The notes: generated by a model from the letters alone, not told the origin. A DNA stretch of 64,000 nt from Candidatus Bathyarchaeota archaeon (GCA_963739305.1 CAVTZU010000028.1:62443-126442); one strand, 5' to 3'. Shown: positions 18,758 through 58,101, counted from the stretch's first letter. Numbers and translations: made by a program.

Positions 18758-18832
18758 TGGACGGGCCGGGATTTGAACCCGGGACCTCCACGATGCCAAC
18801 GTGGCGATCATACCAGGCTGATCTACCCGCCC
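18758..18832 (-). tRNA. tRNA-Ala(GGC)
   Basis: GGGCGGG acceptor with G3:U70, anticodon arm CCACG-TTGGCAT-CGTGG, T-loop GGTTCAAATCC, discriminator A. Confidence 0.96.
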
Positions 18833-26821: not shown

Positions 26822-27790
26822 ATGATTCCGGTTGAAATTTCGTTTGTCAGAAAGTCGTATGGTGATTTGAAGGCGGTCGATGGAGTCTCCTTTTCTGTTC
26901 AGGAAGGTGAGGTCTTCGCCCTTCTTGGCCCAAACGGAGCGGGTAAGACAACGCTGATAGAGATTCTGGAGGGCTTGCGGAAAAGGGATGAAGGCAATGT
27001 GAAGGTGCTGGGTCTCGATCCTTGGGGGAACGGCTATGTGCTTCACAGAAGAATCGGGGTTATACCGCAGGATTTTACGTTCTTCGACAAGCAGAATCCG
27101 AGGGAAGCACTGGAATATTACGCTGCTCTTTTTGGGGTGAAAATTGATGCAGATCAGATACTGCGGGAAGTGGTTTTGGACGATTCGGCGAATGTTCTTT
27201 TTGAGAACCTTTCTGGTGGGCAGAAGCAGAAGCTTGGTCTCGCGCTTGCACTAGTGAATTCTGCCGAACTTCTTTTCCTAGACGAACCCACCACGGGACT
27301 TGATCCGAATGCGCGAAGGTCGATCTGGGATGTGATAAGAGGGCTGAGGAGCAAGGGCCGGACGGTAATTCTAACTACTCATTACCTTGATGAGGCTGCG
27401 CAGCTTTCAGACAGGGTAGCCATCATGGATCATGGACATGTCGTAGCGATGGGAACTTCCGATGAGATCATCGAAGCTCACGGCTCAGGGGAAAGACTGG
27501 AAATACACGGAACAGAGGAGTTGGCCGCTTACCTCAAAGCAAACACAAACTTGAACGTCCAATCTAACGGGAAGGGTCTGATCAGTATAGCAATCACTCA
27601 GAAACGCGATGCACTGACAGCCTTGACAGCTGTTGAACGATCTGGGCTCGAATGGCGAGACCTGCATACTCGTCGCGACAGTCTGGATGACGTATTCGTG
27701 AAACTTGTGGCTGGGAGGATTGATGAGAAAGGCGAGATAAGAGTCGAAAACACTGGTAGCAATTCGAATGGTCAGGGGAGGCGAAAATAG
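26822..27790 (+). CDS. ABC exporter ATP-binding protein
   Basis: GPNGAGKT, LSGGQ, LDEPTTGLD, TTH. Confidence 0.93.
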   Translation: MIPVEISFVRKSYGDLKAVDGVSFSVQEGEVFALLGPNGAGKTTLIEILEGLRKRDEGNVKVLGLDPWGNGYVLHRRIGVIPQDFTFFDKQNPREALEYYAALFGVKIDADQILREVVLDDSANVLFENLSGGQKQKLGLALALVNSAELLFLDEPTTGLDPNARRSIWDVIRGLRSKGRTVILTTHYLDEAAQLSDRVAIMDHGHVVAMGTSDEIIEAHGSGERLEIHGTEELAAYLKANTNLNVQSNGKGLISIAITQKRDALTALTAVERSGLEWRDLHTRRDSLDDVFVKLVAGRIDEKGEIRVENTGSNSNGQGRRK

Positions 27791-28885
27791 ATGGCTAATG
27801 CACGAAGAATCATTTCTGACCTCCGATTGTTTGGTCGTGGCTACCTTAGAAACGCAGCAGGCCTGTTCTTCGGACTAATTTTCCCTGTCATCCTCATACT
27901 CATCTTCGGAGCGATTTTCTCATCGGGTTTTTCAGGATCAATTACGCTCTACTATCAGAACCACGACGGTGGGCAGATCTCCACATCTTTTCTGAACACG
28001 CTCAACAGCACAGGCACCGTTAAATTAGTTTCAGTCAGTGATTCGGAGAACTTCTCTCAATATCTGTCAGCCCATTCCGCTTCGGATGGATTGATCATAC
28101 CCCCTGATTTCTCGGCGAACTACTTGGCAGGCCAGCGTGTTAACGTCACGCTTTACGGTAACCCATCTCAAAGTTCCAGTTCAATCGTGATTGGAACCGT
28201 CACTGGAGTGATAAACGGGTTCAACTTGGCTCGCTACGGAGGCTCATCGATCATCGGAATAAGTCAGACTACCGCTAATACTCAGGTGACCAAATACATC
28301 GATTTTCTCGTTCCAGGCCTCGTCGGCTTCTCAATACTCGTAAGCCCGATGTTTTCTCTCGTCAACATATCATCTGAATACAAGAGAATAAAGCTGTTCA
28401 AGCAGTTGTCGTTAACTCCTCTAACCAAGATCGAGTGGCTAGCGTCGAAGGTTCTCTTTTACATCCTTTTGTCGGCAAGCTCATTTCTCCTGATGACTGT
28501 GGTCGGAGTGTTTGTCTTTGGGGCACACATCGTGCTTTCACTGTGGCTAATACCATTCCTCGTATTGGGACCGATGTTCTTCGCATCGCTGGGTATGCTG
28601 GTTGGAACTATCTCTAAAAGCACAGAAACCGCCAGTGTCGTAGGAAACATCATAACGTTTCCGATGATGTTCCTCTCAGGCACGTTCTTCCCGATCACGC
28701 TCATGCCAACATATCTTCAATACTTCGCGCATGTCCTGCCCCTATTCTACATAATAGATGGACTCAACGGCGTCATGATTTACGGCAACTATGTGCAAGC
28801 ACTTATCGACTTGGCCGTCGTTGCAGCAATCACGATAATTGCGTTCGTGGCGGCAGCAAGACTATTCAAGTGGAGAGAAGACTAA
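27791..28885 (+). CDS. ABC-2 type permease
   Basis: YIDFLVPG, PMMFLSGTFFP, six-TM ABC-2 topology; abuts the ATPase. Confidence 0.92.
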   Translation: MANARRIISDLRLFGRGYLRNAAGLFFGLIFPVILILIFGAIFSSGFSGSITLYYQNHDGGQISTSFLNTLNSTGTVKLVSVSDSENFSQYLSAHSASDGLIIPPDFSANYLAGQRVNVTLYGNPSQSSSSIVIGTVTGVINGFNLARYGGSSIIGISQTTANTQVTKYIDFLVPGLVGFSILVSPMFSLVNISSEYKRIKLFKQLSLTPLTKIEWLASKVLFYILLSASSFLLMTVVGVFVFGAHIVLSLWLIPFLVLGPMFFASLGMLVGTISKSTETASVVGNIITFPMMFLSGTFFPITLMPTYLQYFAHVLPLFYIIDGLNGVMIYGNYVQALIDLAVVAAITIIAFVAAARLFKWRED

Positions 28886-30998: not shown

Positions 30999-31451
30999 TT
31001 GATGCGTGCAGGGATCAAAATGAAACGAAGTTGCTCTAGAACCTTGCTGATGCACTTGAATGTTGTCACTCTGCCCCGACTCAAAGGAAACTTAGAATCC
31101 GTCTTTGCTGATGATGAACAAGACGCCAAGCATCTCGTTTCAGATGCTAAAGGGTTCAGCAATGTGATTATTCTTAGGAAGGTCGAGTCCATTGATGGTG
31201 TATTCGTAAGACTGCCCAACGGGCAAAATATCGGCTCGTTAGGGGTGATGTTGGATTATCTGGAAAAATCACATGTTGATGTCGGCGCGTATAGTAATGG
31301 CAGAGAATGTCCTTTTTATCGATTCGTCTACACTGATTTTTACGGTCCTAAGCAGGTGCGCAAGAAGATTTATGAGGTCGTGGCTCCCTCAATAGCTTCA
31401 CTCGAGCCATGTTACTCGTTCCTCAAGAAGTACTTTGGTGGTAAAGATTGA
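30999..31451 (+). CDS. Hypothetical protein coupled to the kinase-fold gene
   Basis: 150-aa ORF whose stop overlaps the TTG start of the next gene. Confidence 0.6.
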   Translation: MMRAGIKMKRSCSRTLLMHLNVVTLPRLKGNLESVFADDEQDAKHLVSDAKGFSNVIILRKVESIDGVFVRLPNGQNIGSLGVMLDYLEKSHVDVGAYSNGRECPFYRFVYTDFYGPKQVRKKIYEVVAPSIASLEPCYSFLKKYFGGKD

Positions 31452-33253
31452 CCGAGGAAAAAGCTGAAGCACTTCCGATAGACTATTTTGCGTCCATTGG
31501 AATTGGAAATCGAATTCTTAAGTTGTTGCGCGATATTCCCTTTGAAGAAGCTCGTTTGGGCGGATATACTGAAACTAAGTTGAAGAAACTTCTTTCAAAT
31601 TACAGACGACAGCTGATTGCGAGGAATTTGGTAAGATCAACAAAACCTGCACAAGAAGAACAGAAGTCTGAAGCTTCTGGGAAAGAGTCGAAGAGTCACG
31701 GCAAGAGGTCGCTCTATGAAGAACTTGAAGCACTGGAAGAATCATGTCAAATAGAAATTCGTAGGGAAGAAGGAGAACCTCCTCGTTACAGCTTGAGTAA
31801 CAATGCGCTATTCTACATTCATAGTCTATTTCCAACCGCACTGAATTTCCATACGGTGGCGGAGAGATGCATAAAAGCCCCATCGTTCAAATGGAGCCCA
31901 CGTCCAATAGGAGAGTCTGAACTCCTTCTGGATGAGATAATCTTGGTCCCAGGTTCTCTGATACTTGCAGGGGAACATAGTGTATTGCTGGGTCAGCCTG
32001 CCATAGTCTTACCAATACCTCTCCATGTAATGGTTCACGCGACGGTTTACCAGTGCAAAAAGACCACGGAGGTTATTAAGCTCCCCCCAACATTCCCATC
32101 TCCGAACTCTTTGATCGGAGAAATAAGTACGTTTCCAGGAACGCCAGAACGCAGTCGTACTCAAGATTATAAATTCAACGAGCAAGTGAAGTCGGTTGTG
32201 GATCTATTTCAGAAGAAATTAATAGCCTTTAACGAGAGCTCAAATTATTATGTCGTGCTGGACATCCGGAGTCAAATCCCCCCTTCTGTCGGTCTCGGTA
32301 GCAGCGGAGCATTATGTGCTGCCTTGGCAATCTTGCTTGATCGCATAAAATATTTCGGGGACAAAAGTCCAATCGATAACCTAAATCAGAAAGATCTGGG
32401 CAATCTGTTCGACGACAAGAAGTCTAGACTTATGGAGATATTTCTCAACGCATCGGAATTCGAAGCAGTTGTCCATGGAGAAAGCTCCGGAGTTGGACCG
32501 TTCGCCAGCTTGGTCGGAGACGACTGTTTCACGCCTTTATGGTATGATTTAGGTGTCAGACCGGATGATAAAGTTGCCAAAGGAAAAAGTCGACTGAGTC
32601 AACACTTGAATCGAAGGAACAAAGGAGCGAAGTGCACATTAGACCTGAAATGTAAGAGAGGATCTGAAGAGGCCAGGAGATATCTGAGCAGATATTTGGG
32701 ATTAGCCGCTGTCTATACGACTCAAAGTCGTCCAGAGCTAAAGTCAAAACAAGCCGAATCTTCGTACTGGCATTCTTTAGGAAGACCTGACTGTCGCCGC
32801 GATTTCTTTGCGATTACACAGAAGTTGTGGGACAACTTATGCCATGTAAACAAAGAAAGCGAAGCTGATGATGACATACAAGATGTAATCACTTGCGTCA
32901 ATCTTTTCGGAGGGTATGAAGAGGGATATCTGAAGATGTTGCGCCAAGAAAGCGAAGCGACGCCTCGAGAACTAGTATACCACATGCGCGGATTCGGTCT
33001 AGGGGCAAAGTACGTAGGCGTAGGTTTTGGGGGAGATATTGTTGTGATTGGCCGAAAGGAGAAGTTAGGAATGATGCTATTTCCAAGTTACTTCCCCGTG
33101 CACTTTAGCAGTGTAAATCTCACTGACGACGAGAAAGTAACTCCTTCGATAGACGTGAAAGCACGGCCATTGATAATTCAAAAAGACAAATTCGTGGAAG
33201 AACTCATGCCCCAATTCATGAAACGCGCCCAACGGGCTTATTTGAGCTACTAG
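31448..33253 (+). CDS. wHTH domain fused to mevalonate-kinase-like GHMP fold (catalytic residues altered)
   Basis: PGSLILAGEHSV, SQIPPSVGLGSSGA, E..VHGESSGVG, GAKYVGVGFGG; ~130-aa N-terminal wHTH-like region. Confidence 0.75.
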   Translation: MTEEKAEALPIDYFASIGIGNRILKLLRDIPFEEARLGGYTETKLKKLLSNYRRQLIARNLVRSTKPAQEEQKSEASGKESKSHGKRSLYEELEALEESCQIEIRREEGEPPRYSLSNNALFYIHSLFPTALNFHTVAERCIKAPSFKWSPRPIGESELLLDEIILVPGSLILAGEHSVLLGQPAIVLPIPLHVMVHATVYQCKKTTEVIKLPPTFPSPNSLIGEISTFPGTPERSRTQDYKFNEQVKSVVDLFQKKLIAFNESSNYYVVLDIRSQIPPSVGLGSSGALCAALAILLDRIKYFGDKSPIDNLNQKDLGNLFDDKKSRLMEIFLNASEFEAVVHGESSGVGPFASLVGDDCFTPLWYDLGVRPDDKVAKGKSRLSQHLNRRNKGAKCTLDLKCKRGSEEARRYLSRYLGLAAVYTTQSRPELKSKQAESSYWHSLGRPDCRRDFFAITQKLWDNLCHVNKESEADDDIQDVITCVNLFGGYEEGYLKMLRQESEATPRELVYHMRGFGLGAKYVGVGFGGDIVVIGRKEKLGMMLFPSYFPVHFSSVNLTDDEKVTPSIDVKARPLIIQKDKFVEELMPQFMKRAQRAYLSY

Positions 33254-33266: not shown

Positions 33267-34236
33267 TTGTCAAAAGTCACGGTAGTGTCTCATCCAATTC
33301 AAGGTTTGGTCAAATATCACGGTCTCAAAGACCCTTTGAAAAGAATACCTTTTCATGATTCTATATCAGTCTGCGTGGAAGGTCTTGCAACAAGAACCAC
33401 GGTCGAAATAATGGAAAATAATGCTCCCGATTACATTTGGATTAATGGTTTCAGCCTTAAGGGTTCAGCAAGAAGACGCGTTGAACTTGTTCTAAACATA
33501 CTGAGAAGGAAAAGCCCGAACCAAATGCGGGATAAAGATTGTGTCGCAAAACAATATTACTGATGGGAAAGGATTGGGTTTCTCTTCCTCGGGCTTCTCC
33601 GCACTAGGTCTTGCGACAGCCAAAGTATTAGGTCTGAAGCTTGATTCAATCTCGCTGCAGGAGACAGTTAGGCTTGGATCTGGATCTGCGACCAGAAGCT
33701 TGGCGGGTGGCTTTGCTATATGGTATGCGAATAACAATGGGAGATCTTACGCCCAAATGCTAGCCCCTCCTGACGCTGTCCATCTTGGAATCGTCGTTGT
33801 TCCAATCCCAGACAGAATAATCACAGATTCGATCCACCAAGAAATAGAGACCTCGCCTTTCTTTCATTCTCGACTGAAGGTATTGCCTGATTTGATGGAA
33901 TCAATGAAAAAAGCAATATTCAATGATGATGTGGGTGAAATTGGGAGATTGGCAGAACAAGATAGTCTATCTCTTCATGCAGTGACAATGACCACCAGAA
34001 GTGGATGGATACTGATGAAGCCTGAAACAATCCGGGTCATAAATCAGGTGAAAAAATTGAGAAAAAGGGGACTGAATGCTTGGTTTTCGTTGGATACAGG
34101 TCCGTCTGTATTCATCAATACAGTTCCTCAAGAGGCAAAGGAAATCTCGACGCAAATAGAGAGCGAACTAAGACTACGAACGATTGTAAGTGGCATTGGA
34201 GGACCCCCTCAAATATCAACAGACCATCTGTTCTGA
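33267..34236 (+). CDS. mvaD: Phosphomevalonate/diphosphomevalonate decarboxylase, split by one frameshift near 33510
   Basis: HPIQGLVKYHG...RIPFHDSISV, KGLGFSSSGF, RLGSGSATRS..GGF, FSLDTGPSV; removing one A from the A4 run at 33510-33513 joins both ORFs. Confidence 0.85.
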
Positions 34237-34676
34237 AATTGGATCTGATCAGTCTAATTCGCACTGCAGATTGGGTTGTACGACGTCTGATATTGCAGAC
34301 AAGAAGGGCAGATTTGACTTCTGCAACTGTATCAAGAGGCCTGAACTACTCGTAAAACGACAACGTTGACGGCGACGGTGACGGCGTGAACAAGAAATCC
34401 TTGTCAACTCGCGCGTTAGAATTAAGCACCAGCTGGTTTGGTCTTTGATATTTCTTGGTCATGATTGTAACGGGCAACAGAGGATCGCTACCAAACCCTA
34501 CTTGAAATTGAACTGAGTGTCGCCATGAACCCTACCTTTGGTGGCGATGTCTCCCGCAAACCCCTCTTTTTATTTAAAAGTGTTCGCCTGTGAAGGTTGC
34601 GGAATTTCGTTCTAAACATCGTCTGCATAAGCCTTAGCGCGCGCGTAAAGTTTTATCCCAAACCAAAATTGAGGCT

Positions 34677-35414
34677 TCAAACGTAGAGTACGCCAATGCC
34701 AAAACCTTCTTGGTTACTGCTATTGACTATCTCCTTGTGAAAATACCCAGGTTTTATTTCATTCCAAAACTTGTTCACTGCACCTGCCAGTTCTGGGGGA
34801 CCCCTGCAAATATCGTGGAAAGCAATTAAACCGCCTTTGCGTACTAGTGGACTGTACATTTGGAAATCTTTCTTGACGCCTTCGTAAGTGTGATCACCAT
34901 CTATGAAAAGAAAGTCAACTTGTTGATCTTTCAGGATTGATCTCACGGTTGACAAACTGGACGGTGAATGTGAGTCAGCTCGGACCAAGAATATTCGTTG
35001 ATTTCTTTGAGCGAAGTTTGTGAAGAAGGGTATTTTGATATCTTCATATCCTCCTCCAAATTTGCCTTGCGGCAAGTCTAGACTAATTATTCTAGCGTTT
35101 GGGTCTATCATTCGAGTGAAGAGAAACAGTGTTCCTCCTTGAGCTGTTCCGATTTCAAGTATGGTACATATGTTCTGTTCGCTTAGTATAGACAGCAAAG
35201 TCTCGATTTCTTGCTTAATCTGAAAAGGTTCGATTGACCAGCCTATCAAGTTTAGGGGTTTGTGATGAAAAATGTCAAATGTTAGATCCACATAATCCGC
35301 GGGTGTTTTGCATTTTCTTGCTTTCTTACTCAAAACTGAAGAGGCTATTCTCACTCTGATTCCACAAATGTCAAACTTGCCAAGATTAATTTCACGATTA
35401 AATGGAAGTTTCAT
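34677..35414 (-). CDS. Class I SAM-dependent methyltransferase (Methyltransf_24-like)
   Basis: LEIGTAQGGT, FLFIDGDHTYEGVKKD, GGLIAFHD; start set at ATG 35414 because the longer ORF overlaps the next gene. Confidence 0.85.
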   Translation of the reverse strand: MKLPFNREINLGKFDICGIRVRIASSVLSKKARKCKTPADYVDLTFDIFHHKPLNLIGWSIEPFQIKQEIETLLSILSEQNICTILEIGTAQGGTLFLFTRMIDPNARIISLDLPQGKFGGGYEDIKIPFFTNFAQRNQRIFLVRADSHSPSSLSTVRSILKDQQVDFLFIDGDHTYEGVKKDFQMYSPLVRKGGLIAFHDICRGPPELAGAVNKFWNEIKPGYFHKEIVNSSNQEGFGIGVLYV

Positions 35415-35472
35415 TCCGAAAACAAAAGTGGACGAGTTTCCTTTTAAGGGTTTTTTCTTATGGTTTTGCCAA

Positions 35473-35486
35473 TTAGCGCGCGCTAA
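35473..35486. promoter_or_regulatory. Perfect 14-bp palindrome TTAGCGCGCGCTAA
   Basis: Lies between the divergent methyltransferase and ligase genes; half-site copies recur nearby. Confidence 0.45.
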
Positions 35487-35674
35487 GAAGAAAAGGTTCC
35501 TCAAGTTGTCTTGATAGTAGGATCTCACATTCACGCATACCAATAATGTTAAGAGATGCATGTCTTCGAAAAGTAGAATGAATGATGGATAAGGTGATCT
35601 AATTACCGAACATTTTTTCCGAAAGCTACGAAAGCATCTATTCGCGTGCTCGTATTTTACATAATCTGCGAATA

Positions 35675-36940
35675 TTGCAAAGAAACACATGGTTGTCTTC
35701 TTCTGAATTGGAAAGGATGCAAACGAAAAAACTCCGGAGTATTTTGGAATATGCATATGAAAACGTTGCTTTTTATCATCAGAGGTTTAATATGGCGAAA
35801 GTTAAGCCGAGTGACATAAAATCCTTAGAAGATCTGCCCAAGATTCCAATTCTTACAAAATCAGAGGTCCGAAATAATTCTAACTCTCTTATTTCAAAGG
35901 GAGTTATAAAAGAACTATGCAAGAAGGAAGAGACTTCGGGCACAACTGGCATCTCCTTATCCATTATCGCTGAGAAAAGAGTGTCCTATATCATGGCAGC
36001 AAACAAGTTAAGACACTACGTAGAAAATGGGGGAAAATTATTTAGAGACAGATATGTCGTCCTTCTCCCATCATTCAGGCCCCTCAGAGGGACCTATCTG
36101 GGTGTTCTTCTTAGAAAGTTAGGAATCCTAAGAAGGGTTGATTTGAATACCCGGTATCCGATAGAAGGCATAATTGACAGGTTAGTTGACTTTAAGCCAG
36201 AAGTAATTGACAGCTATCCGAGTTTCCTTCTCCTATTAGCGAGGGAACTAGAAAAAAAAGGAAATGCGATTCAACCAAGACTTGTTTTTGTTAGTGGAGA
36301 GCTCCTCGATGCTAGGAGTCGAAAGCTGATCAATTCTTCGTTCGAAACTGAGATGTTTGACACATACGGCTGTACAGAAGCGGGATTCATCGCTTGGGAA
36401 TGCTCTGAACATGCTGGTTACCATACCAATGTGGACCTAGTGGTTGCTGAGTTTGTAAAGGATGGCGAACAAGTTGCAGCGGGAGAGTCTGGTGAGATCA
36501 TTCTCACGCCACTCTGGAACTTTGCTATGCCGTTGATAAGGTATAAAGTCGGTGACATTGGCACACCAAGCGGTGAAAGTTGCCCATGTGGAAGAGGACT
36601 ACCTTTAATGAAGGTATTAGAAGGGAGATTTGAGGATCTCATAATATTGCCAACTGGTAGAATAATTTCTCCTCTCGTCATTTCATGTTATTTTGAAGGC
36701 ATTGAGGGAATAACTGAGTACAGAGTAATTCAAGAAAAAACAGATGACTTCATTGTACAAATTGCATTAAAGGAAGGTTACGGAGATGACACGCTTCTTC
36801 AAATCAGAGACAGATTCATGAAAGGGTTAGGGGAAGACATAACGATCAACTTCGAGGTTGTTGACACCATACCAAGAGATGGTAAACTCCGGCGCATAGT
36901 CTCTAAGTGCCTCCCCCGAGAACGCTTTTTCTCCATTTAG
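35675..36940 (+). CDS. Phenylacetate-CoA ligase (PaaK/CapK)-like adenylating enzyme
   Basis: AYENVAFY, TSGTTG, YPSFL, SGELL, DTYGCTE, PLIRYKVGD, EGR. Confidence 0.88.
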   Translation: MQRNTWLSSSELERMQTKKLRSILEYAYENVAFYHQRFNMAKVKPSDIKSLEDLPKIPILTKSEVRNNSNSLISKGVIKELCKKEETSGTTGISLSIIAEKRVSYIMAANKLRHYVENGGKLFRDRYVVLLPSFRPLRGTYLGVLLRKLGILRRVDLNTRYPIEGIIDRLVDFKPEVIDSYPSFLLLLARELEKKGNAIQPRLVFVSGELLDARSRKLINSSFETEMFDTYGCTEAGFIAWECSEHAGYHTNVDLVVAEFVKDGEQVAAGESGEIILTPLWNFAMPLIRYKVGDIGTPSGESCPCGRGLPLMKVLEGRFEDLIILPTGRIISPLVISCYFEGIEGITEYRVIQEKTDDFIVQIALKEGYGDDTLLQIRDRFMKGLGEDITINFEVVDTIPRDGKLRRIVSKCLPRERFFSI

Positions 36941-37059
36941 CTCGTGGTCAATGTATGCTAAACAGCTAAGAGTGAATAATGGACGCGCAATTTTGAGAAA
37001 CATAGCATGAGTCTTCATTGTTCCTTTTCTGTTCTATAAGAGAGTTCCAGAAGGAATAT

Positions 37060-37239
37060 ATGAACAAACTAGTTGTAATAACAGTCATGAAAACTGACCT
37101 TGCTATTAGAATACGACATGGTTGGACAAAAGACGAAAATGAGCACGCAGCGAAACCTAAGGTAACCACCTGCGGCGGCGGAGGATGCGGATGCGGAACT
37201 GGATGCTCATTTTCGCAAGTGACTGAAAAAACACGCTAG
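37060..37239 (+). CDS. Putative RiPP (TOMM/LAP) precursor peptide
   Basis: 59 aa from ATG 37060 or 50 aa from ATG 37087; charged leader then TTCGGGGCGCGTGCSFS; 16 bp from the SagB stop. Confidence 0.8.
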   Translation: MNKLVVITVMKTDLAIRIRHGWTKDENEHAAKPKVTTCGGGGCGCGTGCSFSQVTEKTR

Positions 37240-37255
37240 TAGAATGTCCTGATCG

Positions 37256-38038
37256 TCACCTTCCAATTGCAGCCATGTACAAAGTCGATTCAACATTACC
37301 ATCGAGACCTAACAAATCGTTGAGTTGGTTATCGGAGAAGCCGCCGATTGAACAACACTCTAAGCCCAACGCAGTTGAGATCAAGTAGATATTTTGCATA
37401 AGATGGCCTGCCTCGAACAGAACATACCGATACCCTCGTTCTCCATATTTTGTCTCTGTCCTCTCAAATACCGCGCTAATTACACAGATAAAAGCAGCGT
37501 TACGCGTCCAATCCTGATTGTTTAAACAAGTACTGAACTCCTTTGCGTTGCTATTCGCCTTAGTTTGTTCGAGCGATTGCGATTTAACATTGAAATGATA
37601 TACGCCGTTCTTCAACTTTTTCACGTGAAATGATATAACGTAAACTTCCAATGGATAACGTGCTCCTGCTGAGGGATAAGCACGAAGCTCTGATAGATCC
37701 GTTCCTTCAACAGTGTGTGTAATTCCTGCTGAGCACAGTAAGACGGTAGCAACGTCTCTCAGCGTGACTGCTTTCCCAACAAAATCCCTTTGTGATCTGC
37801 GGCGGTCAAGAACCTCGTAAAATGGTAGTGAACATTGTATTACATCGCGCGCGCGTGACAAGCCAATTTGCTTAAACCTTGGATACGATTTGTAGCTAAT
37901 TTCTTTCCACTCGAGAGGCCATTCAACAATATCTATTTCGGCACTTGGAATGAAAAGCTTCGTATTTTCATGAAAGATTTTGGAAAGCGAAATTTTTTTA
38001 TTGTTCGCACTAAACTCATTAGAAAACATAGTTATCAC
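37256..38038 (-). CDS. SagB/ThcOx-family FMN-dependent azoline dehydrogenase
   Basis: FHENTK, RRRSQRDF, RAYPSAGARYPLEVY, KYGERGYRY, EAGHLMQN. Confidence 0.93.
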   Translation of the reverse strand: MITMFSNEFSANNKKISLSKIFHENTKLFIPSAEIDIVEWPLEWKEISYKSYPRFKQIGLSRARDVIQCSLPFYEVLDRRRSQRDFVGKAVTLRDVATVLLCSAGITHTVEGTDLSELRAYPSAGARYPLEVYVISFHVKKLKNGVYHFNVKSQSLEQTKANSNAKEFSTCLNNQDWTRNAAFICVISAVFERTETKYGERGYRYVLFEAGHLMQNIYLISTALGLECCSIGGFSDNQLNDLLGLDGNVESTLYMAAIGR

Positions 38039-39373
38039 AGAAATGGATGGGGGATGGGATTTAACCTTTCTTGTGCATCAGCCTTTTTGTGCCCCAAAGT
38101 TTCAGGCACATTTCTTAAACGGCTGCCACCCCAATACCTGAATCTTTCATCCAGGTACAGTGGTTGAAGTTCCGGCATTACAACCTTCACCACCCTCAAC
38201 CCTAGTTCCTCAACGTCAAGAGTCGTAACGTCAACATAATAACATGCTTGATTGCGTTCTCGTAGGATTTTCAGGCATGTTTTAAGTTTGTCGCTCTTTC
38301 CCTTTTTTTTATTACGAAGATTACCACTCAGTGGTTTTTTCTTTGCGCCCAAGAGAAATGATAATTTGGGAATCATCGATACATCGGACCATAATAGTCC
38401 TCTCTGTTCAAGATTGCTGATGTTTTCCCACTTGGGGTCCGTTGTAGGGGGCTTTACAGTTTTGTCTTGTTTTAGTGTACGCAGCCAATGCCTTGATTGT
38501 TGAGATTCCTCCATGCATCCTAAAATTGCTTCTTCTGCGTTAAGACTTGCTTTTGCTCCAACTGAAATTGCCGGTCCGACCCCAGTTCTGTCTATCAGCA
38601 GACATAAGAAGACAGGTATAGGAATGTCTGTAGTTATATCGTATACGTAAACTTCCAAATTTGCATCCCTGAATCGTGTTAGAAGCGTTCCAATAAGATT
38701 ATCATTTAAAGAAGAAAGGTCAACAAGCGGGGAAGATAATTTATTAAGATAGGTGATGATGAATGCGTCCCTTTCGACAACTTCGCAGATCCCACGGTAC
38801 AAGGCATCGGAGATGTCCAACCCTGCTGCTGCACCTGTTGTTATTGGCAATCTGATTATGGGCTCATTGTGACCGTATATGTAGGGCACGTGAACCAATT
38901 GTGCGGGTAGAAGTCTTTCTGAATCATCGAAAACAGAATGGCTAGAAACCCAATTGAATTGTGAATGTCCATCGAAAAGGAATCTAGCATACTTTTCTTG
39001 TCGCCTTTGATTCTCTGAAGGACCGACTACCGTGAATGGATCTATAGCACGCTCTGATCCAAGTTCATTATATGAGGCTTTTGTGAGATTCTCTTCGAAA
39101 TATATAGAGAGGCAGTATCTTTCGATAGCTTCTCCTATTGCCTTAACCTTCCCTCTTTCTTCGTTAATCGATGTGCCACCCACAGTTTCTTCTTTTATTC
39201 CTCCTGTACTAAAGACAGTGGTATTGCAGATTTCGGATGCATAGTTAAAAAGTCTGGGCTCATCATCATAAGTTGGTGCCCTGTACAACTTGCGGATAAT
39301 GCCGATTCTTGGATTTATTATGTGCCAAACAAGGTTTAGAAAGCTTTTTTCCTTGTCGTCTTCCTGTGCTCAA
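38035..39373 (-). CDS. YcaO cyclodehydratase (D protein); N-terminus apparently frameshifted near 39345
   Basis: KAIGEAIERY, TTGAAAG, GICEVVERDA, C-terminal PIPHPFL; in-frame IINPRIGII upstream of 39288 implies the TTG 39373 start. Confidence 0.93.
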
Positions 39374-39375
39374 TG

Positions 39376-40453
39376 TCAAGAGTCAGCTTCCTTTCTTTTT
39401 CCGCAAGTAGGGCAGTTAGGAACCTTTAGCAGACGATCCACACTTAAACTGTACGTTTTGAAATTTACGTGGAGAACTCCCGACAATGTGGCTGGGTCAC
39501 TATACTTTCCTAAGTACTTGAGAGCCTCTAAAGTCGTTAAGCCTGCTATGATGTCCGCAAAGGGGCTTATTAGTCCAAGTTGCTTCTCGTCTGACATGAG
39601 CTGTTCTTGATATGCAGTATAAAGCTCGATGTCGTCTATGTTTGATTTGATCCTGAGGATAATAGCAATCGAAACATGGAGACATGTAAGGAATGACGGT
39701 AGGACCCACTTCACCATGGTCCTCGTAAACTGCGGTATTTAACCACGGTTTACCTTGAGTAACGCACATGCGATTCAGCGACGATCGGTACAGTAAGGAT
39801 CGATTTTCAGAACAACAAACTACAAGATCGACAAGATTTAGGCAATCTAAGAATTGCTTATCTGACAAGTCAGCTTTAACCCAATGGAGTTCAGTTTTGT
39901 CTGAAACTATTGAACGCAGTGCTTCGCCGCGTTGGGTACCAGCATCACGATTTGTGTATGGACCTAACTCGATGTCTGCTGGTCCAACTTCTTTTGAGTC
40001 AGATGCGAACAGCTTTCCTACGCCATTAAGTGCCAGAGAAGAAGCGACCCTAGAGCCAACAGCGCCAAGTCCTACCAAAAATACGGAGGAATTCTTGAGT
40101 CTTTTTGTAGGCTCATACATCTTAGAGTAATTACCAATCGAGGCAAAGTAGAGTGTTTTCAAAGTATTAGCATTAATGTCATTTTGAGAAAGTTTAAAGT
40201 GGTTCACGTTGTCATCATCAAATACTATTGAATTATCGCTTAAGAATCGAATAATGGATTTAACACGCTCTTTGGGATACTTGGTTAACCTAAGAATCTC
40301 CTCAAAATCATGTTTACCATCAAGAAAAGGCAACAGTTTTTCGAGTAAACCTACCGATTTACCATGGACTTCAACTATCTTATCCCCGCATATGAAATAA
40401 AGGCTACCGTGTTTTCTGACAACTGTAAAATACAAAGGGATTTTTGGCTTCAA
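39376..40453 (-). CDS. RRE plus ThiF/E1-like leader-binding C protein, split by one frameshift near 39661
   Basis: N-terminal LLPFLDGKH..EEI (wHTH RRE-like), VGLGAVGS, GPTVIP..SPCFDC, C-terminal PNCPTCG; deleting one T gives continuous CFDCYILRIKSN. Confidence 0.87.
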
Positions 40454-40650: not shown

Positions 40651-41235
40651 ACGTTCGCAATTGGCCACTTCGCTTTGGGATACATAACGGGAAAGGGCTG
40701 TTCAAAGCTTGCCAAAGTCAAAGCGAACTTGCCACTTCTGCTTGCAGCTTCGGTTCTTCCAGATGTTGATCTGCTACTGCGTTTCCTTATGCACCGGGGA
40801 CCTACGCACTCATTCATCACCATAACCGTACTGATGATTCCGTTTTTTATTGTTTATCGCAAGCAAGCCATCCCGTATTACGCGGCTTTGCTTTCTCACA
40901 TTCTCATAGGCGATTTTTTCACCGGAGGGGTCGAGCTGTTCTGGCCACTGTCCCAAAATTGGTTCGGAGCTTTAAACATTGAAGTAACTAGCCTAACTAA
41001 CGTTATTGCGGAGCTTGTCCTTTTCTTCTTAACCTTGCCGATCATGTACAAGCTGGGCGAATTGCAAACTCTTTTGAAGCCGCACAACAAGAACTGGGCT
41101 CTAATAATCCCACTAGGTGCAGTTCTCGGACCTTTGCTTACGGTTGGTCGAGGCCAAGAATATGCTCTTCCAACCCTCCTTGTGGTTCCGAGCCTGTTCT
41201 ATATCAGGTCTGTTTGCATATTCCATGTTTGTTGA
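40651..41235 (+). CDS. YdjM-like membrane-bound metal-dependent hydrolase (possibly damaged)
   Basis: GH at the N-terminus, LPDVD, HRGPTHS, SHILIGD, LFWP; expected start reads ACG at 40651 and the C-terminus shifts frame near 41205. Confidence 0.75.
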   Translation, partial: TFAIGHFALGYITGKGCSKLAKVKANLPLLLAASVLPDVDLLLRFLMHRGPTHSFITITVLMIPFFIVYRKQAIPYYAALLSHILIGDFFTGGVELFWPLSQNWFGALNIEVTSLTNVIAELVLFFLTLPIMYKLGELQTLLKPHNKNWALIIPLGAVLGPLLTVGRGQEYALPTLLVVPSLFYIRSVCIFHVC

Positions 41236-48038: not shown

Positions 48039-49330
48039 TTAGGTTGATGCGCGCTTTCGAGTTTTGAATTGCGCCACTTTTTCAGCTGCTCCCAAGACAG
48101 GGCTTACCATTTTTGAGACGAAGCCCATTCCTGCGAACATGATTCTGAGGCTGTTTATGTCTGCTGAATAGACTGCGCCGATGAGAGGAGCGGTGACCAC
48201 GTATACAGTGAGGAAAACGGCAAGGCCGACTATAAGTCTTATCCAGTTCGTTGGCAGAAGAGTGGCTGGTAAGTATGCGATGATAGCTGCTGTTGTGGAG
48301 GCTGCGAGGATTTTGGCTGAGGATTGGAAGTCGGCTTTCGCTTGGTAATGCTTCCATATCCAGTATAGTGCCCAAATCATGCTGGGAATTCCGGATAGGA
48401 TTCCTGCTATAATGAGGCCTGTTATTCCATACATGGAAATGAGCGCAATACCTAGTGGAAGGCCTATTATGAAGGTGATTATACTTTGATACATGGGTAT
48501 TCTCGTTTTTCCTAGGCCAGTCAGGAGACCACCTGCGCTGATGCTTCCGATGGCGACAAAGAGGTTTCCGGTGACCATTATGGTTAGGAAGAGCGGTCCG
48601 TAAACGTATTTTTCTCCGTAGAGTGCGCCGATGATCGGTCCTGACACAGCCATTAGAATCATGGTTGCTGGCACAAGTAATATGGAGGCGTATTTTGTTG
48701 AGGATGCGAACACGGCTTTTAAGAGGTCATGTTCGTTCTCTGGGTTGAGTTTTGAGAATGCTGGGAACAGGACTGTTCCTATGGGGATGCTGAGGAAGGT
48801 TAGAAGGACCGCGAAGTTTGAGGCTGTTAGGTAGTTGCCGTACATCGAGTTGGTGGTCAAGGGGACTATCATGAAGGCGTATACTTGGGTGAGGACGCCG
48901 CCTAGGCTAGATGAAATCGAGAGAGGCACTCCGTAGCTTAGCATGGTTCTGAGAGTTCGGGTTATGTTGGTTCCTTTTGTTACCTTCTTTCTTAAAGGCC
49001 TGAGGAGGATAATGTAGAATGTTGTTAGCCCGATGATCGCTGCGGCAACGACGGACAATGCGTTTCCAAGGACTGCTCCGAGGACGCTGTAGCCTAGAAA
49101 GACGAGTACGGGGCCTATAGCTGTTTTTGTGATAGCTTGACAGATGAGCGTGAAGCTGTTGAGTTTCATTCTTTCAAAGCCTATGAATACGGCTTGAGAT
49201 GCTGCGAGGATTGCGCCTGCAACGATTGAGACCGACATCATAGCTATGTAGGATGCAGATTCTGGTCTTTGGAAGATTGTTGAAGCGATAAACGTTGCGA
49301 GGAAGAGGGCCAGGAATGCTGGCCTGGATG
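48039..49330 (-). CDS. Wzx-like oligosaccharide flippase, 5' end cut off at the junction
   Basis: Multi-TM MOP-fold pattern, YGNYLTA..F, VLFPAFS, LYGEKY; the ORF-track N-terminus comes from the foreign sequence. Confidence 0.82.
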
Positions 49331-49345
49331 CACGTGCAGACGCGG
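49310..49345. other. Junction between archaeal and high-GC bacterial sequence
   Basis: Abrupt composition and codon change that truncates a gene on each side. Confidence 0.88.
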
Positions 49346-49657
49346 CGCGCTTTCGTGCTCGTCGAGGCGCGGAGAGCGCCGCGAACATCTCGAGGATGCC
49401 CGCCGCATGCCCGGCCGCATCCTTCTCCGACATCTTGCGGACCGAGGCTTCCGGTGCCGACATGCCGCCGGCCGCGTGCACTTCATGCATCGCTGCCTTG
49501 AGCATCGAAAAAAACGTTCGCGAATGGACTCCGGCAGGTCCGGCTCGCGCAGCGGCGCGAGGTGCCTGCGGTACGCGTCGAGCAGGCGCGGCTTGACGTG
49601 GCCCGTTCCAACGAGCAGCTGCATTGCCGCGTGAAATTCGTCCGGATCTGCCGCCAT
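49331..49657 (-). CDS. Bacterial hypothetical protein, frameshifted and truncated
   Basis: MAADPDEFHAAMQLLVG...VRKMSEKDAAGHA across frames; GAGAGG RBS. Confidence 0.55.
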
Positions 49658-49845
49658 TGCCGGCCTCTCACTGCGTAAAATTGTTCTTGTTCAATGCCTT
49701 GGAGCTGATTCTTAATCTTTTAGGTCACTAATAGTGCGGGTACGTAAAAACCGAGGAGAATCAGCCTCCTACAGCTTCAATATACGCCTACGCATTAGAA
49801 CTGCAACGGTGATTGATTCCAGTCCCCGGACACCGATCCATGGTG

Positions 49846-51523
49846 CTATTGCGGCAGGCGCCGCACCTCGCCCCTGCCACGAGGGTCTGACGCGGCGTCC
49901 CAGCCATCCGGCGTGCGCACGATCATCTGCACATCCCCCACGGCCAGTCGTTGTTCGACCCTGTAGCCGCGTTGCCGCAAGGCATCGATCGTGGCTGCAG
50001 GAAGTTCGCCGTCATACGTGATGAGGTCCGCCGGCAGGCCTGGTGGTGGAACCGCGGGGCGGCCACGGCCTGCTGCGTCGTCATCCCGTAGTCGACGACG
50101 TCGACGAGGCCTGCAACACGCCGGTGATGATCGTCGAGCCGCCGGGGAGCCGACCACGATCGGAACCTTCCCTCCGATCGAGCAGGATGGTGGGCGTCAT
50201 CGAGGACAGCATGCGCTTGCCCGGCTGGATCGCGTTGGCATCGCCCGCGAGCAGCCCGTACAGGTTCGGCATGCCGGGTTTGGCGCTGAAGTCGTCCATC
50301 TCGTTGTTGAGCAGGAACCCGGCGCCGCCGACGACGAGGCCGCTGCCGAAGTCCGCCGTTCAACGTGTATGTGATCGCGACGGCGTTGCCCTCGCGGTCG
50401 ACGATCGAGTAGTGCGTCGTGTGGCGCGCTCGGCGGACCGGCGCCCGACGCTCGTCGGCGCGGCGCGATCGACTGCGGATTCCCGCGCGCAGCGCGTGCG
50501 CGTACGCTTGGTCGTGAGCCGCTCGATCGGCACCTGACGAAGTCCGGGTCGCCGAGCAGTCGTTCGCGGTCGGCGTAGACGCGCGGCGCATCGCCTCGCG
50601 ACCAGGTGCGTGTAGCTGCGCCGAGTGCCACAGGCGCGGCGAGGTCCTCAGCCCGCGCGTCGATCATGCCCAGCAACTGCGGCAGCGCACGCCGCCCGAG
50701 CTGGGGGGCGGCATGCCGACACATGACTGGCCGCGGTAGCGTGCGCGGAGGGCTCGCGCCACGTGGGCCGGTAGGCGGCAGGTCGCTCGCGCGTGATCAG
50801 GCCGCCGCCCGCTGCATCTCGGCGACGACCAGGTCGGCGGTCCGCCCGCGGTAGAAGTCGTCGACCGCCCTTCTGGATGCGCGCAGGGTCCGCAAGGGTG
50901 GGCTGGCGAAAAGTTTCACCGGCCTGAAGCGTGCCGAAGTGCGCCACGAAATTCGTGCCGGCGAATCGGGCTTCTTCCGCTGCAGCCCGTTCGGCCAGCA
51001 ATGCGGAACGACGAAACCCTGATCTGCAGCGGACCGCGGGTGCTACGACCGCGCCCAGGATAACCTGCCAAACCTGCTGTGCGCCTCCCACAGGCCCGCG
51101 ACGTACCGGGTACGCCACTGCGCGATGTCCAGTGAGGCTCAGGTCGTCGATCACATTGCCGGCCGCGTCGAGGTACATGTCGCGCGTCGCGGCGGCCGGC
51201 GCCGCCTCGCGGTAGTCGAGGAACGTGGCAGCGCCGTCAATCCAGGCCAGCATGAACCCGCCGCCGCCGAGGTTGCCGGCCTCCGGATATGTCACCGCGA
51301 GCGAGAAGGCGCCGGCGACGGCCGCGTCCACCGCATTGCCGCCGGCGCCGAGGATGTTCGCGGCAACGGCGGCGCTGAACGAATCCGGCATGGCCACCGT
51401 ACCGCCGCGGCCAGCCTGGGCGGTGGCCGTGGGTGCCTGAGCGGGTTGTCGCGCCGGAGCGCCGGCGCACGCCGACAGCAGCGCAACGATGACCAGCAGC
51501 AGGGAGCGGCGAAACTTGTCCAT
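49846..51523 (-). CDS. ggt: Gamma-glutamyltransferase, many frameshifts
   Basis: GGNAVDAAVA, GNLGGGGF, DYREAAP, HTTHYSIVD, MDDFS, PGKRMLSSMTPT, SDPRG. Confidence 0.9.
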
Positions 51524-51679
51524 GGGGTGGCTCGCGTGGCAGTGAACTCGCCCTGCATGCTATCGCAGCAAAACGCTCTGCAGTCGTGCGTGCCTATAAT
51601 CGCAAACAGGGGACGCTTGCCGATTTCCGCACATGGGCGAGCATGCCTATTTGTCAGCAGGCCACGCGCAGGAACCAGA

Positions 51680-52750
51680 ATGACGAACGCAACCGCCGAA
51701 TCGACCCGTGCCGCGGCTACGCAGCGGCCGATGCCGGGAGCCCGCTGCGCCCGCATTCGTTCACACGGCGGGCATTGCGGCCGAACGACGTCCGCATCGC
51801 ATCCGTTACTGCGGTGTCTGCCACACCGACCTGCATCATGGCGCGCAATGACTGGCGCGGCACGCTTACCCGATCGTCCCGGGGCACGAGATCGTGGGCC
51901 AGGTGACGGCGATCGGCGGCGAGGTCACGGGCTCGCCGTGGGGGACTGGGTGGCGGTGGGGTGCCTGGTCGACAGCTGCCTGGCATGCGGCGAATGATCG
52001 CAGGTCGCGAAAGTACTGCCAGAAGGGTTAGACACTGACCTACAACGGCAAGGATCGGCCCGACCGGCGAAGTCACCTATCGGCGGTTACTCGACCCACG
52101 TCGTCGCGCGCGAGGAGTTCGTGCTCAGGTGCCGGCAGGGCTCGATCCTGCGCGCGCCGCGCCGTTGCTCTGCGCCGGCATCACGACGTACTCGCCGTTG
52201 CGTCACTGGCAGGTCGGGCCCGGCACGAAGGTGGCGGTGGCGGGTCTTGGCGGTCTCGGTCACATGGGCGTGAAGCTGGCCCGTGCCATGGGCGCCGAGG
52301 TGACCGTAATCACCCGTTCCGCGGCCAAGGCCGCCGAGGCGCATGCGCTCGGCGCTCAGCACGTGCTGGTGTCCTCCGATGCAGAGGCGATGAAGCGCGC
52401 CGCGGGTAGGTTCGACTTCGTGCTGGACACCATTCCTGTCATGCACGAGGTCGATCCATATCTGCGGCTGTTCCGCGCCCACGGTGCGATGGTGCTGGTC
52501 GGCGCGATCGACGCGATCCCGTCCTTCCACAGCCGCCTGCTCTCGCCGGACGCAAGACGCTGTCGGCCTCGGCGATCGGCGGCGTGGCCGAAACGCAGGA
52601 ACTGCTCGATTTCTGCGCGCGCAGGGCATCGTCGCAGAGTGCGAGATGACGCCTATTCAGCGCATCAACGAAGCCTTCGAGCGGATGGAGAAGGGCGACG
52701 TGCGGTACCGCTTCGTCATCGACCTGGCGTCGCTGGATCCGGCCGCCTGA
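51680..52750 (+). CDS. Zn-dependent NAD(P) alcohol dehydrogenase (cinnamyl-ADH type), frameshifted
   Basis: CHTD, GHE, VGCLVDSC, APLLCAGITTYSPL, GLGGLGHM, DVRYRFVID. Confidence 0.88.
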
Positions 52751-52766
52751 GGCGCGGGAGCGCGAC

Positions 52767-53834
52767 ATGATCGTCTCGACCACGCTGACCGGCAGCAACG
52801 CGGAGATCATCGGCGATGCGATCGCGTCGGTCGTCGAGCACGTGGACCGCTGCCTGGTCATCGACACCGGCGCGAAGGACGACTCGATCGAGGTCGCGCG
52901 CCGCGTCGCGGGTGACAAGCTGCTGCTCAGGGAATTCCCTGGAAGAACGACTTTTCCGCAGCCAGGAATTTCGCGCTCAAGCCGCGGCACAGGCGGGCGC
53001 AGCTGGGCAGTGACGCTGGATACGGACGAAAGGATGCTGTTCGAGCCCGGTATCGATCTGGCGGGCCAGCTCGAGAAGACCGCATGCACAGATCTGCATG
53101 GTGCTGGACGACGGCGGCACGTACGCCAAGGAGCGCATCCTGCGCCTGCCGGCCAGGCGTCCGCTGGCGCGGGCCGACGCACGAGTGCTGGAAGGGCGGG
53201 CGAGTGCGAACTCGCACGCCTCGAGGGCGTGCGCTTCCACGAATTGCCCAAGGACCCGGCAGCCGCGCATGGCAAGTTCGAGCGCGACGTCGCGTTACTG
53301 AAGCGGTACACGAAGCAGCACGCGAAGCAGGCGCGCTGGTTCTATTACCTGGGCGCCTCGCACCAGCAGCTTGGCGAGTACGCCGCGGCGATCGACGCGT
53401 TCCGGACCTGTGCGAACTCAGGGGCTGGGAAGAGGAGGGCGCCTGGGCGTGCTCGGCGCCGCTGACTGCTGTTGCAAGCTCTATCGCTGGAGCGACGCCG
53501 TCCAGTTCTGTGCGGCGGGCTCGCCATCCGACCGGCGACGGCCGAACTCGCCTGGCTCGCAGGGTTTGCGTCCTTCAAGGCACAGCGCACGACGATGCGA
53601 TGCCTGGTCGAACATGGCCGCGGCGAACGGACTCTACCGGGCCGGGGTGCGCAGTTCGAGCGCGTCAGCTTCCGCCACCCAGGTCTCTATGAAGGTCCCT
53701 ACGACGTGCTGCGCTGGACCTACAAGGCGCTCGGCAAGGACAAGGAGGCGGCCGAGGCCGAGCGGGATTACGGGCTCGCAAGGCGCGCAAGGGAAGCTGC
53801 GGTCACGCAGCGCGTGAAGACTGGCCGCCGCTGA
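52767..53834 (+). CDS. GT2-like glycosyltransferase with TPR repeats, frameshifted
   Basis: VIDTGAKDDS, LDTDE, RW..FYYLGAS TPR-like helices. Confidence 0.72.
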
Positions 53835-53895
53835 ACGCGCACGTGTGCAGCTCGGAGCTCTGAACGGCGCGTGAAGTATTGGTAAGGTGGCGGGC

Positions 53896-54973
53896 ATGAA
53901 ATACCGCGTCATCCAGTGGGCCACCGGCGGCATGGGCAGGAACTGCCTGGCGCGGTCATCGATCATCCTGCAATGGAACTGGCCGGCGTCTATGTCTACG
54001 GAGCCACAAGGCCGGCAAGGACGCAGGCGAGCTTGCCCGCAGGGAGCGGACCGGCATCATCGCCACCCGCAACGTGGCCGAGATACTCGCGCTGGAAGCC
54101 GACGTGGTGATCCACGCGGCGCGGCTCGCACCGCCCTATGGCTCGCACGATGCCGACATCATCAAGCTGCTGGCAGCGGGCAAGAACGTCATCAGCATCA
54201 ACGGCTACAGCCGGCCGCAGCACTGGGGCGGCATGCGGCTTGCCGCACTGGAGGCGGCATGCAAGTCGGGCGGGACGACGTTGCTCGGGGCCGGTCTCAA
54301 TCCGGGATTTGCCGGCGAACAACTCACGGTCGTGCGACCGGTGTGTGTACGCAGGTCGACCACGTCGAGGTCGTCGAGAGCGTGGACTGCCGGCCGGTCC
54401 GCAGCCCCGATTATGTGTTCAAGATCCTGGGATTCGGCGCGGAGCCGGGCGCGGTCGATCCGAACGATCCGGCATGGGGACCTTCGTCGTCGCTGAACGG
54501 CATGTACGCCGAGGTCCTCGCGGCGATGGCCGAGCACCTCGGCCTGCGCCTGGACCGGGTCGATACCGAGCACCGCGTGTTTCCAGCCGCGACGGATCTC
54601 AACGTGCTGCGGGGCTGATACCGCAGGGCCGCGTCAGCCACTTCAACTGGCGCTGGCACGGAACGTCGGTGGTGAGCCGAGACTGACGATGTCCATCCAC
54701 TGGTACATGGAAACCGCGCACCTTGAAGATCCGCGGCCGCCGTTGTGGCGCATCCACGTGCGGGGTCAGCCGGGCGTCCGTCTGTCGGTGGACATGGAGA
54801 AACGGGCTGGGGACACGTCGCCGACATCCGCCGAGCAGATTGCCGTGGCGGGCTCGGTGATCAATGCGATCCCAATCGTGTGCGCGGCCCAGCCGGGTGT
54901 GATGACGCGCCCACTGGCAACGCCGTTTCGCGAAGAACTCATGAGTGGTGAGCGACGGCCGGAGTCACCCTGA
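53896..54973 (+). CDS. DapB-like/amine dehydrogenase family NAD(P)-binding protein, frameshifted
   Basis: YRVIQWATGGMG, LAAGKNVI, GAGLNPGF, INAIPIVCAAQPG. Confidence 0.75.
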
Positions 54974-55019
54974 TCGTGGGTCCTGCAGCAGGCCAGGGCT
55001 TGAGTCATCTTGCCCAGGC

Positions 55020-55483: not shown

Positions 55484-55553
55484 GTCATTCTCCGGCTGCA
55501 GATTGCCCGGCAATCATAGTCGACCGTCCGGCACGTGACAGACAGGGACCGGG

Positions 55554-58042: not shown

Positions 58043-58101
58043 GTTCCGTGGCAGCTGCAGCGCAGGTTGCGGTGTTCCACCGCAACCCGCACCGCTGCCA
58101 T

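Follow-up and report, generated by a model that had tools for sequence, protein, structure and literature searches.

We describe here a 50-residue peptide gene in a genome fragment of Candidatus Bathyarchaeota archaeon (the window, i.e. the whole 64,000-nucleotide stretch of DNA that was analysed) which we hold, with a probability of roughly 0.78, to be a real precursor gene of the TOMM/LAP type and the substrate of the adjacent C protein, YcaO and SagB enzymes. The peptide ORF occupies the 315-nt gap between two gene ends (36940 on the plus strand and 37256 on the minus strand), and the minus-strand operon that encodes the three enzymes (C protein, YcaO, SagB) converges on it, with the SagB stop codon situated 17 nt from that of the peptide. 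The peptide gene, the candidate upstream element and the three modifying enzymes are located as follows:

37087..37239, plus strand: precursor peptide gene (50 aa plus TAG), based on its translation and on four relatives
37056..37061, plus strand: ATATAT, candidate archaeal TATA-like element, 25 nt before ATG 37087
37256..38038, minus strand: SagB-type FMN dehydrogenase (B protein); TIGR03605 149.7 bits (cut-off 78.4), Pfam Nitroreductase E 1e-25
38035..39288, minus strand: YcaO cyclodehydratase (D protein, SagD family); TIGR03604 271.4 bits (cut-off 219.25), Pfam YcaO E 6e-62
39376..40453, minus strand: E1/ThiF-like C protein (SagC family), whose two frames, 39500-40453 and 39376-39717, overlap; ThiF 80.2 bits

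Translation of 37087-37239 on the plus strand yields MKTDLAIRIRHGWTKDENEHAAKPKVTTCGGGGCGCGTGCSFSQVTEKTR, followed by TAG TAG. Its four Cys (residues 29, 34, 36 and 40) all fall within residues 27-43, a 17-residue patch that contains 7 Gly and in which residues 39-41 read Gly-Cys-Ser, exactly as an earlier interpretation of this DNA (hereafter the sequence-only reading) had claimed. The same reading had placed an ATATAT box 25 nt before ATG 37087, and the element was indeed located there; a leaderless transcript from this candidate element is plausible, and the hexamer itself is present in the 64 kb window at chance abundance (4 copies vs 4.16 expected). Two further starts lie in frame, of which ATG 37060 (59 aa) is the one used by the window's own database gene call (P0002) and TTG 37018 would give 73 aa; we favour ATG 37087 because P0124 and P0125, the two most distant relatives of the peptide, have their own start at the Met that aligns with it.

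A short frame squeezed between convergent genes may be no gene at all: it could have arisen by chance, or be a GC-rich element with a regulatory or terminator role, and have been called as a protein automatically, and the presence of a short hexamer repeat within it lends itself to such an interpretation:

37183..37197, plus strand: GGATGC hexamer repeat (Gly-Cys units) within the core; Tandem Repeats Finder period 6, 2.5 copies, 100% matches

The statistics of the region speak against it. At least 4 Cys together with at least 7 Gly in 17 residues were found in a single one (the peptide ORF) of the 921 segments that run from stop to stop over 30 aa or more in window positions 1-49500, a looser threshold (3 Cys with 5 Gly) again retained 1/921, and the patch was recovered in 0/200 order-1 Markov simulations; the Cys/Gly patch of the peptide ORF is not due to chance. 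Furthermore, the reading as a structured RNA or terminator was rejected, as the fold of 37150-37260 was no better than that of shuffles (z-score -0.10) and no Rfam match was present in 36700-37500. Neither Pfam nor NCBIfam gave a hit to the peptide (0 each, i.e. no curated family), and its best look-alikes in the ESM Atlas (scores 0.79 and 0.77) were two unnamed, uninformative clusters.

The peptide was found to belong to a minute family. A word-index search with the peptide alone (5.8 billion clusters) returned two candidates, both of them members (P0002, the window's own 59-aa call, and P0003), a profile search of all 1.84 billion representatives recovered three proteins at E <= 0.001 (adding P0124), and a word-index search with the three-member alignment confirmed five out of 74 candidates, P0125 and P0126 being new, which brings the total to five members including the window (four relatives) in about 15 billion proteins:

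P0003, from the aligned Met: MKTDLAIKIRHGWTKDEDESVLKPKVANCGGGCGCGGGFSPATEKTRK; leader identity to the window peptide 21/26
P0126, from the aligned Met: MKTELAIRIRHGWTKDENEHALKPKVANCGGGCGCGSSPVTEKTR; leader identity to the window peptide 24/26
P0124, from the aligned Met: MKAGLNIKIRHGWTKDDNERAVKLKVATCGCSFSPETTKDDDEHTVKLKVATCGCSFSPVTEKAR; leader identity to the window peptide 18/26
P0125, from the aligned Met: MKAGLNIKIRHGWTKDDNERAVKLKVATCGCGCSFSPETTKDDDEHTVKLKVATCGCSFSPVTEKAR; leader identity to the window peptide 18/26

The contigs of P0124, P0125 and P0126 measure 6891, 1972 and 1413 bp, respectively. In three of the five members the called start precedes the Met that aligns with window position 37087, and the N-terminal extensions called for P0003 and P0126 are longest-open-frame artefacts: the P0126 extension corresponds to window 36900-37004 translated in another frame (32/35 residues identical), a stretch that takes in the 3' end of the gene for an adenylating enzyme and that in the window is separated from the peptide frame by a stop. 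This 3' end also lies upstream of the peptide gene in the P0126 genome, and the window shares the DNA upstream of the peptide gene with the P0003 and P0126 genomes. The three closest members are so alike that even the DNA before the start is conserved (a point in favour of the non-gene interpretation), and the independent depth of the family comes only from P0124 and P0125.

The family alignment divides the peptide into three segments:

37087..37164, plus strand: leader (residues 1-26), conserved, proposed docking element for the C protein
37165..37218, plus strand: core (residues 27-44, putative boundaries), with 4 Cys, 7 Gly, 3 Thr and 2 Ser
37219..37236, plus strand: follower (residues 45-50), conserved C terminus

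Across the five members 16 of the 26 leader positions are invariant, the core is hypervariable in both length (9 to 18 residues) and sequence with all of its indels in frame, and the follower stays in register despite them (T46, E47, K48 and R50 invariant in alignment A4). The last core residue before the follower is Pro in 4/5 members and Gln in the window. P0124 and P0125 differ by one Gly-Cys unit, which matches the GGATGC repeat of the window, and core indels could partly stem from slippage at GGATGC and GGN repeats, which would be inherently in-frame. Moreover, the same two members (2/5) carry two cassettes through a duplication that takes in the core and the leader's second half, each cassette having its own copy of this leader half and the same 9-residue core; the window peptide has one. 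The family bears the signature of a RiPP precursor, in that leader and flanks are conserved and the Cys-rich core between them is hypervariable. The organisation put forward by the sequence-only reading (leader, Cys/Gly core and short follower, on the strand opposite to the C/YcaO/SagB set) is thereby upheld by the family alignment and by the domain matches of the enzymes. It is hard to see how a non-coding element would preserve 18/26 leader residues and the follower in P0124 and P0125 while its core shifts in length in frame and an entire cassette is duplicated, and we consider it highly improbable that the ORF is not a gene.

A link between the precursor gene and the enzymes is furnished by P0003, which, like P0005 (a YcaO 90% identical to that of the window), occurs on a single contig 438,533 bp in length, the sources being the same for both. 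The two are evidently encoded on one contig, and therefore the sister genome retains both the peptide and the YcaO; in this one of the four relatives, for which adjacency to YcaO is inferred, a conserved equivalent accompanying a homologous YcaO was thus recovered, which for this relative answers the refuting condition set by the sequence-only reading (no such equivalent). Its further remark that annotation pipelines could miss the precursor held only in part, as all five members exist as predicted proteins, but none of them is named in the protein collections and three of the five were given a start that lies upstream of the aligned Met. A literature search (by general terms, not by sequence) found no description of the peptide family. 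The gene most likely encodes the peptide on which the neighbouring enzymes act, and it is the founder of a very rare, unnamed precursor family whose biochemistry is of a known kind.

The enzymes that converge on the peptide gene are recognisable and unequally preserved. The SagB gene is intact, unlike those for the C protein and YcaO. The YcaO ends in the Pro-rich motif that is known from the C termini of cyclodehydratases. Its relatives (about 445 aa) possess an N terminus about 28 aa longer than the window copy; the window frame is open upstream to about 39369 and similar in sequence there, contains no ATG, GTG or TTG before TTG 39288, and is preceded by TGA-CAT-TGA, with one TTG just upstream in a different frame. 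As regards the C protein, the SagC profile (TIGR03603) matches ORF 39500-40453 with its positions 61-212 and ORF 39376-39717 with its positions 212-297, and because these positions are contiguous the two ORFs are to be read as one C gene with a frame break near 39640-39655. Besides the C gene and the 5' end of the YcaO gene (39289-39372), two other genes in the window are broken or split, namely those encoding mevalonate diphosphate decarboxylase (33267-33563 and 33541-34236) and gamma-glutamyltransferase (49923-50591 and 50648-51523), and therefore assembly indels and real decay are indistinguishable here: the number of broken genes suggests one or the other, and accordingly the window's enzyme set may be defunct, or indel errors may be present in the assembly.

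The N terminus of the C protein was examined as the presumptive site of leader recognition. Its predicted secondary structure consists of three strands followed by three helices, which we take to be the element order of RiPP recognition elements; the prediction comes from a low-confidence model, as residues 1-271 folded from the single sequence gave a poor result (mean pLDDT 36.5). For the first 105 residues Pfam returned only a sub-threshold HTH match, and a complex prediction of the same 105 residues with the peptide (alignment A4), run without controls, scored 0.18 against a mark of 0.32, which weighs neither for nor against binding.

The damage to the C and D genes gives some room to the view that the peptide is a genuine Cys/Gly-rich protein left unmodified by its neighbours (perhaps a metal-binding peptide or a substrate of the adenylating enzyme), and that the C, D and B proteins act elsewhere or are decaying. 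Cys-Gly repeats can bind metals, and the peptide gene follows that of the adenylating enzyme on the same strand at a distance of 147 nt, in a neighbourhood that is kept in the P0126 genome:

35675..36940, plus strand: PaaK/F390-synthetase-like adenylating enzyme; NCBIfam matches below their cut-offs (NF045666 155.7 bits, PaaK 122.8 bits)
34677..35756, minus strand: class I SAM methyltransferase (Methyltransf_24/CmcI-like), divergent from the adenylating-enzyme gene; Pfam PF13578 E 8.9e-17, cluster membership uncertain

On the other hand, the evolution of the peptide in terms of leader, core and follower is typical of RiPP precursors, the sister genome keeps it together with a 90%-identical YcaO, and no alternative substrate for the enzymes was found near the cluster. 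With regard to the latter, the peptide ORF is the sole intergenic Cys/Ser/Thr-rich small ORF beside the cluster (16 kb searched), its profile detects a single copy in the window, and none of the 13 small ORFs inspected upstream of the C gene is rich in Cys, Ser or Thr. Other precursor candidates between 30 and 46 kb were rejected, the top Cys/Ser/Thr-rich ones among 445 segments being all placed inside or antisense to larger genes. We therefore regard an unmodified protein as quite improbable, and retain the precursor of the adjacent C/YcaO/SagB set as the preferred reading.

The limits of the cluster around this precursor are less sharply drawn. The PaaK-like enzyme is a possible tailoring enzyme whose membership in the cluster is uncertain, and a gene for a YdjM-family membrane protein (40675-41235; PF04307, E 2.1e-12) is found divergent from the C gene. 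Since the PaaK-like, methyltransferase, YdjM-like, GT2 and 328-aa unknown genes are each present in 0/80 of the distant YcaO loci listed (see below), their cluster membership rests on position only. No protease, exporter or immunity gene was seen adjoining the cluster: the nearest ABC-2 transporter (26822-28885) is situated about 8 kb away, and the only protease family recorded among the scanned window ORFs was PrsW (10324-11142), with no peptidase S8 in the 48 distinct ORFs scanned (a set of ORFs above about 90-180 aa that takes in a minor share of the high-GC region). The G+C content at 34000-40000 (the TOMM region) is 41-43%, as opposed to 45-50% in the flanking archaeal DNA, which would be compatible with an island acquired by horizontal transfer; the window contains a single tRNA gene (tRNA-Ala, 18757-18832), and it is not adjacent to this region.

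In order to place the enzymes among their kin, the YcaO, dehydrogenase and C protein sequences were compared with protein collections and with all PDB chains. Of 5900 candidates compared with the YcaO, 488 proved to be relatives at E <= 0.001; only three of these are more than 80% identical, the others (at most 50%) being mostly unnamed metagenome proteins. Its solved relatives (phmmer, E <= 1e-3) amount to 4 sequences, i.e. TruD (1e-22), LynD (1e-20), MusD (3e-19) and MJ1094, and McbD was not detected among all PDB chains at the same threshold. The dehydrogenase matched an Anabaena nitroreductase-like protein (8e-36) and McbC (6e-14; entries 6gos and 6grg, which also contain McbD and McbB), and the C protein matched MccB (4e-12) and ThiF (2e-9), with McbB not detected in the PDB at E <= 1e-2.

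A genome scan with the YcaO alignment produced 599 pattern matches (519 confirmed), from which 80 loci of at most 39% identity were listed; these include neither the window's genome nor the 90%-identical relative, and the best of them derive from Patescibacteria and Woesearchaeota. A SagB relative is present in 52 of the 80 (directly after YcaO in the closest ones), and a Cys-rich small ORF is situated immediately upstream of YcaO, on the same strand, in L003, L004, L005, L007 and L012 (35-39% identity, among the loci listed). The occurrence of such ORFs beside YcaO in the closest listed loci implies that the clade takes Cys-rich substrates, and the convergent arrangement of the window's precursor is, among the loci listed, unusual for this clade; opposite-strand precursor candidates were noted in a few distant listed loci (e.g. 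L037 and L072). The peptide profile, when run against the 80 loci, recovered only the window itself (next best E-value 1.4), hence no relative of the leader. Two other arrangements merit mention in their own right: a distant locus in an Alcanivoracaceae MAG (L038, 3526-4560) harbours a tandem of five small ORFs, alike in their leaders, whose Gly-rich cores all end in three Cys, which looks like a multi-copy precursor array, and two Patescibacteria loci (L003, 7663-7887; L012, 641-868) have, immediately before their YcaO genes, precursor-like ORFs that are almost the same in both and whose core is rich in Cys, Asp and Ser.

On the assumption that the peptide is the substrate of its neighbours, a sequence of maturation steps can be proposed, which we infer from the enzyme families named. 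A YcaO together with its C partner makes azolines, and SagB-type enzymes oxidise azolines. Here, the conserved N-terminal half of the leader (residues 1-16) would dock on the recognition domain at the N terminus of the E1-like C protein, upon which YcaO and ATP would carry out the cyclodehydration of the four core Cys (and possibly of Ser41 and Thr27, Thr28 and Thr38) to azolines. The SagB flavoprotein would then oxidise the azolines to azoles, whereby Gly-Cys-Ser at residues 39-41 could yield a fused thiazole-oxazole, and a protease would cut behind residue 26 to take off the leader, and might remove the six-residue follower too. The duplication of the leader's second half with the core in two relatives suggests that residues 14-26 and the follower act as per-core processing signals. 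The same duplication makes it likely that a short polyazole peptide of 9-18 residues is released from the precursor. The chemistry is expected to be canonical, and the product would probably serve as an antimicrobial or as a signal.

Among known systems, the SagBCD-type TOMM/LAP clusters resemble the window in combining a SagD-family YcaO and a SagB (both above curated cut-offs here) with a SagC/ThiF-like partner, and in having a short precursor whose N-terminal leader is followed by a Cys-rich core. They differ from it in gene order, since the window precursor is convergent to the enzymes and not upstream on their strand, and in the attributes of the peptide family (a conserved follower, two cassettes in some relatives, an archaeal host and no curated precursor family).

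The likeness to microcin B17, under whose name the sequence-only reading had placed the precursor, is more restricted. It extends to a Gly-rich Cys/Ser core, one Gly-Cys-Ser site (sites of this kind give fused bis-heterocycles in microcin B17) and a three-protein C/D/B logic in which McbC is detectably related to the window dehydrogenase (E 6e-14). The McbA core is, in comparison with that of the window (18 residues, 4 Cys), much longer, and the mcb operon has the order mcbABCDEFG, with the precursor first, on the same strand, and the export and immunity genes after. The window precursor, in contrast, is convergent and downstream of the B gene, no McbEFG-like, transporter or pentapeptide-repeat gene adjoins it, and neither McbD nor McbB was detected as kin of the window YcaO and C protein. 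Accordingly, core composition and the single Gly-Cys-Ser site are what stands of the microcin B17 comparison, whereas the nearest solved kin of the YcaO (the cyanobactin heterocyclases), the absence of detectable McbD and McbB kinship and the gene order tell against it, and gyrase poisoning finds no support in the present analysis. In the parts of Cox et al. 2015 (PMC4603692) available to us, the microcin B17 group is given as 30 clusters of E. coli and Pseudomonas, with the McbD isofunctional group defined by BLAST E < 1e-54.

The same source, as far as seen, also predicts two archaeal TOMM families with uncharacterised products, the haloazolisins and the thermoacidophisins (Cox et al. 2015, PMC4603692). 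The thermoacidophisins are alike to the window system in their archaeal hosts and in having discrete C and D proteins together with a B protein, and are set apart, by their description in those parts of the paper, by Tyr/Gly-rich precursors; the haloazolisins are set apart, likewise by description, by fused, divergent cyclodehydratases and mostly Ser-rich cores (PMC4603692).

The comparison with cyanobactins (PatE/TruE with PatD/TruD/LynD) opens a different view of the product, according to which the conserved flanks would be signals for excision and possibly head-to-tail macrocyclisation, and the precursor would release a small cyclic or doubly trimmed polythiazole instead of a microcin-like peptide that is long and linear. 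Two of the five family members are multi-cassette precursors with conserved flanks (each cassette with its own leader-half copy), Pro ends the core before the follower in four of the five, the heterocyclases of cyanobactins are the nearest solved kin of the window YcaO (TruD, LynD and MusD, E 1e-22 to 3e-19, within a comparison that is restricted to solved structures), and an adenylating enzyme lies beside the peptide gene in at least two genomes. However, no PatA/PatG-type subtilisin protease or macrocyclase was found among the scanned window ORFs, the C and D proteins are encoded by separate genes (they are fused in cyanobactin heterocyclases), and the window peptide itself is single-cassette and without Pro at the end of its core. 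We consider this mode of release doubtful, and the larger proposition that may be built upon it, namely an archaeal cassette-type polythiazole family in which one docking leader serves short, bracketed Cys/Gly cores that are excised as polyazoles of 9-18 residues and perhaps cyclised or C-terminally activated by the PaaK-like enzyme (without PatA/PatG), seems to us unlikely. The precursor gene as a TOMM/LAP substrate of its neighbours remains our preferred reading.

The remainder of the window provides the genomic setting of this precursor. It contains a number of archaeal host markers (type III RuBisCO, ribose-1,5-bisphosphate isomerase, FrhB-like, mevalonate-pathway genes and topoisomerase IB), a set that we take to point to TACK lineages. 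The first 3262 nt carry an AMP-salvage-type set (glycosyl transferase family 3 at the window edge, type III RuBisCO at 1089-2324 and ribose-1,5-bisphosphate isomerase at 2333-3262), and the topoisomerase IB gene (15795-17402) is of the eukaryote type. A 601-aa ORF (31448-33253) beside the mevalonate decarboxylase gene shows a short match to the GHMP-kinase N-terminal domain (residues 247-309, E 2.8e-7) between long unmatched flanks, and may encode an unusual mevalonate-pathway kinase. Furthermore, the G+C content rises from about 47-49% to 65-74% near 49.3-49.8 kb and stays high to the window end, and long ORFs overlap in many frames across 49200-64000; this may mean that two unrelated pieces were joined in a chimeric or concatenated assembly, or that a large segment of foreign origin is present.

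Of the components of a YcaO RiPP cluster, the precursor is the most difficult to assign, and in the present locus the assignment can be made with good confidence, the boundaries between leader, core and follower being readable from natural variation. According to the portions of a 2025 survey that we could consult (PMC12144867), archaeal YcaO RiPP clusters are widespread and only two archaeal lanthipeptides have been characterised. The peptide described here offers a short and specific candidate substrate with which an archaeal azole-forming system might be reconstituted, and its cassette variants hint at the mode in which the product is released. Were the cassette-type reading to be true, a cyanobactin-like logic would have arisen independently in uncultured archaea.
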